This document shows positions 33,001 through 36,000 of a DNA stretch of 64,000 nucleotides, piece after piece; positions within the stretch are counted from its first letter, which is position 1, and every line of letters starts with the position of its first letter. This DNA comes from Pseudolabrys sp. Its GTDB lineage: Bacteria > Pseudomonadota > Alphaproteobacteria > Rhizobiales > Xanthobacteraceae. The stretch is taken from contig DASRDF010000014.1 in assembly GCA_035652735.1 (NCBI GenBank), positions 8,477-72,476 of the forward strand. Reading direction: 5' to 3'. Position numbers: made by a program.

Positions 33001-36000
33001 ACCCAATAGCTCGATTTGGCCTGCGGCGGGATCGTGAGCGAGCGGATCGATCGCGAGTTTCTGAACGCGTCTTCGTAGACCGCGGCATTCTTCCGATGCT
33101 GGCCGAGAATGCGGTCGATGTGCGGCATCTGCGAGAGGCCGATCGCCGCCGAGACGTTGTTCATGTTGAACTTGTAGCCGACCTCACCCTCGAGAATGTC
33201 CGCGTCCCAGCGCTGTCCCTTCCACTCGCCGCGCGCATCCTTGTGTGCATCGCGGTCATAGCCGAACCACTTCAGCTTGCGCGCCAGGACGAACTGATCG
33301 GGATCGCGGCAGATCAGAGCGCCGCCGTCGCCGGACGACAGATGCTTGATCGCCTGGAAGGAATAGCAGGTGAAATCGGCGAACTCCGACAGCGGCCGGT
33401 CGCGCCAGGTGGCGCCGAATGCGTGCGCGGCGTCATGAATGAGGGGAATGCCCTTGCGGCGTGCCAGCGCATCGAGCGCGTCGAGATCGCACGGCGTTCC
33501 CGCCCAGGCCACGCACATGATCGCCTTGGTGGCGGGGGTAATCTTGCGCTCGACGTCGGCCGGATCGATCGAGGCCGTATTCGGATCGATGTCGGCCCAG
33601 ACGATCCTGCCGCCGAGATTGACGATCGGCGTATTGGTCGCGATGCAGGTCATCGGCGTGGTGACGACGTCTGTGCCCGGCCCCACGCCGCAGAGCTTGA
33701 GCGCCACCGTGAGCGTGCTCGTGCATGAATTCATCAGCACGAGCTGGCTGACCTTGAGATAGTCGCAGAGGGCGTCCTTGAACTCGGTGACCTGCAGTCC
33801 TTCGTTGACGAAGCCGGAATTGAACACCGTTCTCAGGCCGTCGAGCGCCCTCTCGGTCTCGACGTGCACTTTGAACATCGGATAGGCGGTCACGACGCGG
33901 TCCTCTTCAGAGTCGGAGCTGCAATTTCATCGATTTCGCGTCCGACGAAATCGGAAAGCTTGCGTTGGAAAATGCCGATCGATTGCAGGTATGTTTCAAG
34001 ATCGCGCTTGCTCAGCACATCTTCCGACGACGAATAGCCGAAGATTTTGGCGTCTTGTTCTACGGTGATGTGCGCGGGCGCCATACGGTAGTAGCCGTCC
34101 TTGAACTTCACGCGAACGGATTCCGGCTGGCTGATCAGGTCCTCGTGCAGCTTTTCGCCCGGCCGCATGCCGACGATCTCGATCGGCTTGCCGGAGTGCT
34201 CGGAAAATATTTCCGCAAGGTCGATGATCCGCATCGAGTGCAGCCGCGGCAGCCAGATTTCCCCGGACGCTGCGCCGAGTACGGCGGCCGAAATCAGATC
34301 GATGCTCTGGTCGAGCGTCATGACGAAGCGCGTCATGTCGCGGTGGGTCACGGTGAGGCAGCGATGGTTTTCCGCCTGCCAGCGGAACAGCGGAATGATC
34401 GAACCGCGCGATTCGAGCACGTTGCCGTAGCGCACGCCGACGAATTTCGGCCGCGGCAGCGCGAGGCATTGGCTCGTCACCAGCCGTTCCGCGATGGCCT
34501 TGCACATGCCGTAAACGTTGGCGGGCGCGCAGGCCTTGTCGGTCGAGACCATGAGAACGCAGTTCAATTCGGGAAGCCGGTCGACCTGCCGGATCACCGC
34601 GTCGATGACGTTCCTGATGCCGAGCACGTTCGTCTGAATGCTCTCGTAGGGCGTCATCTCGCAGGTATCGACCTGCTTGAGCGCGGCGGCGATGATGATG
34701 ACGGTCGGCCGAAAGCGGAGGATGGTTTCTTCGACGCGCGCGAAGTCGCGAATGTCGCCGACGGCGTAATCGATGCCCTTGGCGCCGTATTGATTGCGAA
34801 TGGTCCAGTGCTTGGCCTCGTCGCGCGAGAACAGCATCACGCTGTTCTTTGCGGTCAGCCGGGCGAGCAAGGCGCGGCCGAGCGACCCCGTGCCTCCGAT
34901 GACGAGCACGCGCTCGCCCACAAGAGTCGCTTCCTTCATCGCAAGCCTCATCGTCTCCATGGAACCGGACACGCTACCGCACCCCGGGTGACTCGCCACC
35001 CGGAGCATATTTCCTCGCACGACGGCAGCCTCACGCCGCCGCAACGCTCTCCACGTCCACCGTCACCCGGACCTTGCGGCCGAGCAAGTCGAGCAGCACG
35101 GCCACGCGGTCGCTGTCCCGCATGCCTTCGTAGAGGCCGAGGCAGTCGGCGAAGGCGCCGTCGAGAATGCGGATCCTGTCGCCCGCGTGGAAGTTTGGGC
35201 GATCCAGCAGGCGCACGAAGCCGCTCGCGTCCTCGCGCGCCTGCAACTCATGGATGACCTGGTCGGCGATCGGCGCCGGCAGATCGCCATTGCAGACGAG
35301 CCGCGACACGCCGACGGTCGAGACGATCGACCGCCAGCGCTGGGCGCCAAGATCGATGCCGACGAACAGGTAGCGGGGGAACAGCGGCGCCGGCACGATG
35401 TCGATGCGGCGCGCATGCCGCCGCCTTTTCAGGTAGCGCGGCAGATAAGTGGAGAAGCCCTGGCGCTCGAGATGCGCCGCCGCCTTGTGCTCGGCGTTGG
35501 GATGCGATTGCACGACGTACCAACGCTGGCCGTTCATTCGGCGGCTCCCCCCTGTTGCCGTATGCGCACACGCAAGAGCTCGGGAACCAGGACGCGCTCG
35601 AAGCCGAAACGGGCGGCCGCCGCTTCGCAGGTTGCGCGCGCATTGGCGACGTCCGTGATCAGCAGGGCGTCGAACGGCTCGGTCACCGCATCGAAATCTG
35701 CAAACACCGGCAGCCCGATGAAGCGTTCGCCGGCCGTGTTCGCGTCCACCACGCCGACGATTGTGATCGCCTGCTCCATCGCGCAGAGCGCGGCGATTTC
35801 CGCGAGATCGGACTGACCGACGAGCACAACGGTGCTGACCCCCGACGCCTTGGCTGCCCGGAACAGATCCGAGCAGTCCGTCTTGGCCTGGCGGAAGAAG
35901 CCGAACGAGTACGACAAATACTCGACGGTCAGCCGCGACTTTTCGGCAAAGCCCTGTGGGGTGAGGTAATAGGCATATCGGCGCGCCGGCGCCCCGCGGA

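Follow-up and report, generated by a model that had tools for sequence, protein, structure and literature searches.

A conserved hairpin and ops-like element directly downstream of an rfaH-like gene in Pseudolabrys sp.: a candidate alphaproteobacterial counterpart of ops/JUMPstart

The stretch analysed here (the window) comprises 64,000 nucleotides of contig DASRDF010000014.1 from Pseudolabrys sp. (assembly GCA_035652735.1, positions 8,477 to 72,476) and has a GC content of 62.6%. On its minus strand, a gene for a MarR_EPS-like winged-helix regulator (35534-36175) is followed by an rfaH-like gene that encodes a NusG paralog of 168 aa (35031-35537) and whose ATG overlaps the stop codon of the MarR-like gene (ATGA). 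The next gene on this strand, the first of a glycan biosynthetic cluster, codes for a PseB/CapD-like UDP-sugar 4,6-dehydratase (33890-34939; Pfam Polysacc_synt_2, 1.5e-72). The gap of 91 nt between the rfaH-like stop codon and the PseB-like ATG contains a hairpin followed by an ops-like sequence (34970-35003, minus strand). This element, placed right behind the rfaH-like gene, had been pointed out in a preliminary description of the locus, and its sequence, the gap and the 7-bp stem are confirmed.

Along the minus strand, 27 bases separate the TGA stop codon of the rfaH-like gene (35033-35031) from the hairpin, which is made up of the 5′ arm CCGGGTG (35003-34997), the loop GCGAGT (34996-34991) and the 3′ arm CACCCGG (34990-34984). 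In RNAfold the 7-bp stem (34984-35003) is extendable to 10 pairs (35006-34981), position 1 of the ops-like sequence included, with a free energy of -18.5 kcal/mol. The 3′ arm is followed by GG and then by the ops-like sequence TGCGGTAGCGTG (34981-34970), in which the predicted pause position T11 corresponds to 34971 and the next base, G12, to 34970. Compared with GGCGGTAGCGTG, the ops of E. coli, TGCGGTAGCGTG shows 11 identities in 12 positions, the sole mismatch being position 1. Its terminal G lies exactly 30 nt from the likely ATG at 34939, with GAGG 6 nt before the ATG. The match of 11/12, terminal TG included, and the distance of 30 nt had both been reported before and hold on the minus strand. 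A simple promoter and terminator scan of 34700-36700 listed nothing.

At the GC content of the window, the probability of the 11-mer arising by chance was computed as 6.0e-7 per position and 3.6e-5 per 60-nt gap, in line with the earlier estimates of ~6e-7 and <1e-4, and 0.077 occurrences are expected in the whole window on both strands. A second exact 11-mer, GCGGTAGCGTG, is found at 11367-11377 (plus strand), antisense within a DegT aminotransferase gene, where it is complementary to the codons that specify this enzyme's conserved GHATATS motif. GCGGTAGAATG is found at 56545-56555 (minus strand), antisense within an ABC transporter gene. Neither copy is accompanied by a hairpin, and both are due to chance or coding constraint and are no signal. 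These two sites and the matches with two mismatches in the window were rejected as targets, being intragenic or hairpin-less. Because chance copies exist in the window, little can be concluded from the motif by itself, and what decides is how other loci compare. Conservation is the decisive evidence against a chance match at 34970-35003.

The RfaH-like protein has more than 5,000 relatives. A scan of genome contigs with this single protein yielded three loci in metagenome-assembled genomes (MAGs) of Pseudolabrys and uncultured Alphaproteobacteria, and in 3/3 the rfaH-like stop codon is followed by the same hairpin and TGCGGTAGC. A metagenome scan by protein alignment, which is blind to the DNA motif, gave 80 loci with 63-86% protein identity. 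The element can be checked only where at least 80 nt follow the rfaH stop codon; four loci end too early to be checked. The hairpin and GCGGTAGC were present in every metagenomic locus with this length of sequence. Conservation in orthologous loci, on which the preliminary description had made its reading depend, is thus seen in 80/80 testable related loci. Measured from the rfaH stop codon, the GGTAG core is reached after a median of 59 nt, and 95% of the distances do not exceed 76 nt.

Among 78 distinct elements of related loci, GCGGTAGC is invariant and position 10 is free, while T11 and G12 are found in 90% and 78% of elements respectively. Position 1 is T in 92%, and the consensus reads (T/G)GCGGTAGC-N-T-G. 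Position by position, conservation follows the same pattern as the ops consensus GGCGGTAGnnTG, and the G2-C9/C3-G8 mini-stem of the ops core is invariant. With the hairpin included, the consensus of related loci opens with yYGGGTG and, after a loop of 3-11 nt, continues as TTCACCCGGA(G/C)(T/g)GCGGTAGC(G/a/t)TG. A perfect GGCGGTAG occurs in six loci (L050, L062, L063, L064, L066 and L071). A covariance model (R1) seeded from 12 equal-length related sequences gives one strong match per related locus, always directly after rfaH. It matches the window element with 39.8 bits (E 6e-10) and finds no second site over the 64 kb. One locus alone (L013) carries a second, tandem hairpin-ops; the two elements, at 3525-3562 and 3687-3725, are ~160 nt apart, and the second has a different stem (GGGC…/TACCC).

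Alignments of the elements obtained with MAFFT (A3, A4) misplaced the 5′ arm because the loop length varies, and were replaced by a covariance-model alignment (A7) of 76 distinct sequences. Fitting to the model biases the pairing percentages of A7 in favour of the structure; this is offset by slid and shuffled controls and by independent RNAfold results. In A7, 94% of the stem cells are paired and five of the eight pairs have changed on both sides (26 cells). None of 500 shuffles reached any of the five measures used, and sliding the partner by 1-3 columns brought pairing down to 24-56%. Moreover, RNAalifold finds the stem core independently, and RNAfold forms the hairpin in nearly every related sequence. 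U-G pairs are frequent at two stem positions (19 and 27 of the 76 sequences); therefore only the sense strand can fold. The distance from the stem end to ops position 1 is 1-3 nt in related loci, unless the stem takes in this position. Counted from T11 in the window, the core stem ends at -14 and the extended one at -11/-12; in an UpxY/opsX-type site, the pause hairpin would be expected about 11-12 nt behind the pause 3′ end.

The product of the gene upstream of the element contains a NusG NGN domain (Pfam, 8.5e-21). Its top NCBIfam match is the RfaH model TIGR01955 (125.7 bits, 1.6e-36), ahead of UpxY, NusG and LoaP; scores of 74.5 bits against the UpxY model (cutoff 100) and of 85 bits against NF006534 (cutoff 124) remain below the respective cutoffs. 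The top PDB sequence match is E. coli RfaH (1.8e-13), compared to 2e-8 for NusG. The HLERQ motif is conserved, and a gapless alignment to E. coli RfaH retains H20, R23 and Q24 as H22, R25 and Q26. The equivalents of T72 and G74 are also conserved, and I93, F130 and R138 correspond to I95, Y136 and R144. This residue pattern, including the losses considered below, holds across 18 and 45 relatives. The modelled NGN domain superposes on the N-terminal domain of E. coli RfaH at 1.6-2.1 Å, with 33-35% identity. As judged from these models and alignments, the upstream gene product is RfaH-like, as had been proposed.

The MarR-like gene is located directly upstream of the rfaH-like gene, on the same strand, in 76/83 related loci, and the MarR_EPS-rfaH pairing noted earlier is thus a conserved one. 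A PseB-like gene follows the element in only 14 of the 83, the first downstream gene being variable. Since the regulator pair is kept and the PseB-like gene is rare, the element belongs with the pair and not with one biosynthetic gene.

A likely operon promoter with two palindromic operators was located upstream of the MarR-like gene (36197-36248, minus strand) through its conservation and a sigma-70 -35 match. It comprises operator 1, GTTCAtaatcTGAAC (36248-36234), the -35 hexamer TTGACG (36226-36221), operator 2, GTTCAcgctgTGAAC (36221-36207), and the -10-like TATCGA (36202-36197), all on the minus strand. TTGACGTTCA is present in 49/49 related loci with at least 160 nt upstream of the MarR-like gene. 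The consensus of these loci is cTTGACGTTCAynnnrTGAAC with TA ~6 nt later, so that the -35 overlaps a GTTCA-N5-TGAAC palindrome; a second such palindrome lies ~10 nt further upstream. The simple promoter scan did not list this promoter. Between the rfaH stop codon and the hairpin, nothing comparable is conserved among related loci. With a conserved promoter before the MarR-like gene and none in the gap, the likely transcription unit therefore consists of promoter, MarR-like gene, rfaH-like gene, hairpin-ops and variable glycan genes. The transcript most likely starts at the promoter upstream of the MarR-like gene and not in the rfaH-PseB gap, and this promoter is probably an autoregulated operon promoter.

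The PseB-like gene, whose product scores 243 bits against the NCBIfam PseB model, below its cutoff, is followed on the minus strand by 18 further ORFs (open reading frames) of the glycan cluster (14971-33893), assigned from the ORF list and Pfam. In total, 19 co-directional ORFs extend from 34939 to 14971 (~20 kb) with gaps of at most 184 nt, and the cluster ends at the start of a convergent plus-strand gene (14011-14970). They encode a DegT aminotransferase, a GNAT protein, an ABC ATPase, an RmlD-like reductase, methyltransferases, glycosyltransferases of the GT4 and GT2 families, an asparagine synthase, a UDP-sugar dehydrogenase and an epimerase. To judge from its spacing, the cluster would form a single transcription unit. 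The preliminary description had envisaged an RfaH-ops switch acting in cis over 20 ORFs and ~20 kb; the extent is borne out with 19 ORFs, and antitermination is the role that such a switch would be predicted to play.

We consider it likely that the element is a pause-and-load site for the RfaH-like factor encoded directly upstream, and an alphaproteobacterial counterpart of ops/JUMPstart. Transcription would start at the conserved promoter before the MarR_EPS-like gene, and the polymerase would cross the MarR-like and rfaH-like genes to meet the element ~1.2 kb downstream. RNA polymerase would then pause at T11/G12 of TGCGGTAGCGTG, a sequence that fits the consensus elemental pause with G at -10, a pyrimidine at -1 and G at +1. 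The nascent RNA hairpin, with its stem end 11-14 nt behind the predicted RNA 3′ end, probably prolongs the pause; class I (his-type) pause hairpins act at about 11-14 nt behind the RNA 3′ end. The single-stranded non-template GCGGTAGC, displayed on the polymerase, would be read by the H22/R25/Q26 patch of the NGN domain, as homology suggests. The bound factor would stay on the polymerase and suppress pausing and Rho-dependent or intrinsic termination over the ~20 kb of glycan genes.

The E. coli ops element combines a pause at U11 with a small non-template DNA hairpin, in which G5 and T6 are read by RfaH (Zuber 2018, PMC5995543). RfaH contacts ops through K10, H20, R23 and R73, and Q24 lies in the T6 pocket; the mutations G4C, G5A, A7T and G8C abolish recruitment, and mutations of C3 and T6 reduce it ~3-fold (Zuber 2018, PMC5995543). 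G2-C9 of TGCGGTAGCGTG covers all bases needed for recruitment of E. coli RfaH, which counts in favour of a pause-and-load site. From the invariant G2-C9, the same pattern of pause determinants and the retained equivalents of H20, R23 and Q24, we infer that the same pause-and-load logic would apply. The comparative evidence thus supports the interpretation offered in the preliminary description.

Several observations weigh against this interpretation. The score of 125.7 bits against TIGR01955 is below the RfaH equivalog cutoff of 144.5. Two of the four ops-contact side chains are lost, K10 being replaced by H12 (H/Q/R in relatives) and R73 by V75 (V/I, nearly all hydrophobic), as is the autoinhibitory salt-bridge residue E48, replaced by A50, an invariant Ala. 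Features of the autoinhibited α-helical KOW hairpin of RfaH, which refolds into a β-barrel, are the E48-R138 salt bridge, I93 and F130. In the AlphaFold2 (AF2) model (45 sequences, pLDDT 91), the KOW domain is a five-stranded β-barrel (five β-strands in residues 121-167, pLDDT 80-89) and not an α-hairpin; AF2 returns one state, so that a second fold may exist. With the K10, R73 and E48 equivalents lost and a β-KOW predicted, the protein may therefore not work in exactly the way of E. coli RfaH. The TG pause dinucleotide is missing or shifted in ~10-20% of related elements, and a lineage at 47% identity (L121/L122) has no ops at the gap position. TTCACCC is kept even where it is unpaired (L055), and the hairpin alone does not account for this. 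An Rfam search at the element matched no family, JUMPstart included: whether 4 kb or the surrounding 101 nt were searched, the JUMPstart model RF01707 (gathering score 35 bits) gave no match at E<=10. The argument from hairpin spacing draws on general knowledge of class I pauses. Finally, no RNA-seq run with this locus was found, the source being an uncultured soil bacterium and the loci coming from soil, rhizosphere and mine metagenomes.

The covarying stem, its U-G pairs and the folding of the sense strand alone would also be expected if the element acted at the RNA level. The factor or another protein would then bind the nascent hairpin and its 3′ tail, as LoaP does, or the element would serve RNA stability, processing or ribosome entry, and ops would not be read as non-template DNA. 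Two residues that touch DNA in E. coli, K10 and R73, are not conserved; this and the distance of 30 nt to the start codon point in the same direction. However, the invariant 8-nt GCGGTAGC is the DNA-read ops core, the equivalents of H20, R23 and Q24 are kept, and the free position 10 with conserved T11/G12 follows the logic of an ops pause and not that of pairing. Moreover, the best score of the LoaP model is 36 bits against a cutoff of 125, and RNA and DNA readout can coexist. Action at the RNA level alone is thus improbable. A role as terminator or attenuator separating rfaH from the biosynthetic genes, with a tail incidental to read-through and no sequence-specific loading, appears very unlikely: a stable GC-rich hairpin (-18.5 kcal/mol) does lie in the gap between a regulator gene and a long operon, but neither in the window nor in related loci is the stem followed by a T-run, the terminator scan was empty, and the invariant GCGGTAGC would be left unexplained.

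A site in double-stranded DNA, either an internal promoter or an operator of the MarR-like regulator driving or gating the biosynthetic genes, is likewise very unlikely. The gap has no -35/-10 pair, the sequence between stop codon and hairpin is not conserved between subgroups, and an arm spacing ranging over 3-11 nt would be intolerable for a dimeric operator. Compensatory changes and U-G pairs indicate a single-strand structure, and the operator palindrome is GTTCA/TGAAC, not GGTGA/TCACC. What speaks for such a site is that the sequence of the 3′ arm, TTCACCCGGA, is kept even where it is partly unpaired (L055), and that this arm has TTCAC in common with GTTCAC, a half-site of the upstream operator. 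A fortuitous match in GC-rich DNA could be argued from the two other copies inside genes of the window and from 17 matches to TCACCCGNNNTGCGGTAGC in viral contigs that lack an RfaH-like gene. It is already refuted, since those copies have neither hairpin nor neighbouring gene, whereas here position, strand and structure are conserved in more than 80 independent loci.

The pause-and-load site proposed here shares with E. coli ops/JUMPstart the core GCGGTAGC, the free position 10, T11-G12, the sense strand and the association with a long polysaccharide operon. Its orientation and its place before the first biosynthetic ATG would fit a promoter-distal site in the transcribed leader of such an operon. 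The alphaproteobacterial factor has, like E. coli RfaH, an RfaH-type NGN domain with HLERQ. In the E. coli rfb leader (cUGGu-loop-gCCAg-G-GGCGGUAGCGUG), the hairpin likewise ends 1-2 nt before ops. Used as a positive control, RF01707 scored 60 bits on this leader (5-bp stem, one spacer base, ops), on which R1 gave a weak match of 14.1 bits. The stem described here differs in length (7-10 bp versus 5 bp) and in sequence, and the second GGUAGC in the loop and the 5′ CAGYGC of JUMPstart are not present. The element, called near-canonical JUMPstart/ops in the preliminary description, has the hairpin-then-ops architecture and is therefore a relative of JUMPstart by design and core sequence, not a member of the Rfam RF01707 family. 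Unlike E. coli rfaH, which stands alone and acts in trans on several operons, the present factor gene lies in cis directly upstream, alongside that of a MarR_EPS-like regulator. The factor also differs from E. coli RfaH in having no equivalents of K10, R73 and E48 and a KOW domain predicted as a β-barrel.

In the UpxY sites of Bacteroides fragilis, a small hairpin of the non-template DNA (GCG...AGC-type stem) occurs along with a pause hairpin in the nascent RNA, and recognition also draws on upstream duplex DNA (Saba 2024, PMC11685472). The similarity lies in a NusG paralog at the head of a variable polysaccharide operon and would extend to the combination of DNA hairpin and pause hairpin, both predicted in our case. 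By way of speculation, TTCACCCGGA, which is conserved immediately before ops, could serve as a contact in the upstream DNA as in UpxY sites. The Bacteroides site, however, lies upstream of upxY in the 5′ leader and not downstream of the factor gene, the partner is the inhibitor UpxZ instead of a MarR-type regulator, and opsX sequences are locus-specific whereas one sequence is common to all loci related to ours. PrfaH of IncX plasmids is another RfaH-like activator encoded in cis, co-transcribed with its target and dependent on an ops-like sequence in the same unit (PMC11880322). Its ops-like site is directly past the prfaH promoter, before the factor gene, and its target is a type IV secretion/conjugation operon in Enterobacteriaceae (PMC11880322). 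In Foldseek, PrfaH (PDB 9IK0) is a weaker structural match to the modelled RfaH-like protein (rank 35). LoaP of Bacillus and other cis-encoded NusG paralogs such as TaA resemble the present system in their place beside long biosynthetic operons and in the part that a leader hairpin has in targeting. LoaP recognises RNA, namely this leader hairpin, and to our knowledge has no ops-like DNA core; its model scores just 36 bits on the RfaH-like protein.

Literature searches for an alphaproteobacterial ops or JUMPstart returned no description, with most subscription journals outside their coverage, so that this absence is no proof; the preliminary description likewise knew of no experimentally characterised case. 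A survey found 18% of rfaH genes in Alphaproteobacteria, with one cluster (CL4) linked to an HTH (helix-turn-helix) regulator, and the recruitment mode is known for E. coli RfaH only (Wang 2020, PMC7593976). How RfaH-like factors are recruited outside Enterobacteriaceae is acknowledged to be unsettled, and to this question the locus contributes a concrete, strictly conserved candidate site; elongation-control sites of this kind have so far been studied only in enterobacteria and Bacteroides. A testable recruitment site would thus be at hand for a large, unstudied branch of RfaH-like proteins, and it bears on the evolutionary order of ops reading and autoinhibition. An unchanged ops core alongside differences in half of the known protein contacts is informative on how NusG paralogs read non-template DNA. 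Natural variants are available in the covarying stem, the T/G alternation at position 1, the free position 10 and the lineages without TG or without ops. In soil Alphaproteobacteria, covariance model R1 flags where variable surface-glycan operons begin.

A more far-reaching proposal, which we put forward only tentatively and hold to be rather doubtful, sees the cassette as a portable processivity module, its ops being read by a relative of RfaH that is devoid of R73 and of the E48 lock, and possibly non-metamorphic. If so, ops recognition would be older than, and separable from, autoinhibition and fold switching. This would contradict the order that has been suggested for how RfaH evolved, 'late ops contacts plus autoinhibition' (Wang 2020, PMC7593976). 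As a pause, the site would be a cross between class I (hairpin) and class II (ops). Since the factor's stop codon precedes the GGTAG core by a median of 59 nt, new factor would be released beside the paused polymerase and load in cis, and specificity would come from geometry and not from autoinhibition.

Elements persist in more distant relatives at 53% (L118), 50% (L120, with a different hairpin), 45% (L123) and 39% identity (L124, in AT-rich DNA). L118 and L120-L124 all retain the HTH-NusG gene pair and glycan genes. In the two loci that have no ops at the gap position, the corresponding regions (L121 1445-1536 and L122 726-817) contain no GGTAG and instead a CCGGG…CCCGG hairpin, perhaps a recruitment sequence of another kind.

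Plasmids of four cultured Alphaproteobacteria, at a protein identity of ~35-41%, likewise carry a hairpin with TGCGGTAGC behind it. In Mesorhizobium sp. 131-2-5 the element directly follows a NusG-family gene (TTTCACCCGGAAG-TGCGGTAGCCGT). On plasmid p4 of Azospirillum brasilense it follows the NusG-family gene of a prophage and precedes the terminase and portal genes. In Agrobacterium sp. MA01 it lies one gene past rfaH and has an unrelated stem, ATGCGCC/GGCGCAT, and in Novosphingobium sp. ES2-1 it is upstream of a flippase gene. Mesorhizobium, Agrobacterium, Azospirillum and Novosphingobium are thus cultured carriers in which the element can be tested. No convincing element was found within 3-6 kb of the RfaH-like gene in six plasmid loci (Bradyrhizobium ISRA435, Sinorhizobium chiapasense, Cereibacter sphaeroides, Sulfitobacter faviae, Aestuarium and Marinovum); therefore not every alphaproteobacterial RfaH-like gene has an element nearby. 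Of the 17 matches obtained when viral contigs were scanned for TCACCCGNNNTGCGGTAGC, none was accompanied by an RfaH-like gene (tblastn) and none by a hairpin (by eye). This is about chance level, and the scan is a negative control.

In A. brasilense MTCC4039, the plasmid p4 locus (L098, 5989-7623) has the NusG/RfaH-like gene and then TCACCCGGcacTGCGGTAGCCGT at the head of the prophage block, which comprises genes for the small and large terminase, portal and head protease. This arrangement suggests that an RfaH/ops-type device drives phage late genes in this prophage. In one MAG (L091, 683-2178), the cassette lies directly after phage-like genes (Sipho_Gp157, Rad52/DUF968), and such neighbours are consistent with mobility of the module.

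The MarR_EPS-like regulator (213 aa) consists of an N-terminal winged helix-turn-helix and a C-terminal domain of ~110 aa. It matches Pfam HTH_24 (5.5e-8) and also MarR_2, and scores 61.5 bits against the NCBIfam MarR_EPS model TIGR04176, below the cutoff of 88. The protein is ~2 times as long as this model, and its length is conserved among relatives (213-242 aa). The C-terminal ~110 aa (35534-35880, minus strand; …VVLVGQSDLAEIAALCA…IVGVVD…) have no Pfam match and, by eye, look like a small nucleotide-binding (Rex-like) fold. The promoter of the MarR-like gene sits in a divergent region of 137 nt shared with a GT4 glycosyltransferase gene (36313-37536, plus strand).

Within the glycan cluster, the region 27747-29698 (minus strand) contains the ABC ATPase ORF (27929-29698), overlapped by an ORF of 295 aa in another frame (27747-28634), with 178 nt to the next gene; the overlap may reflect a frameshift or a mis-called start. 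One flank of the cluster (7878-10735, minus strand) carries sulfate-activation genes (a CysN/C-like APS kinase fusion and a PAPS reductase-like gene) and the other (37509-40208, minus strand) a carbamoyltransferase and an SxtJ-like ORF, which hints at a sulfated and/or carbamoylated glycan.

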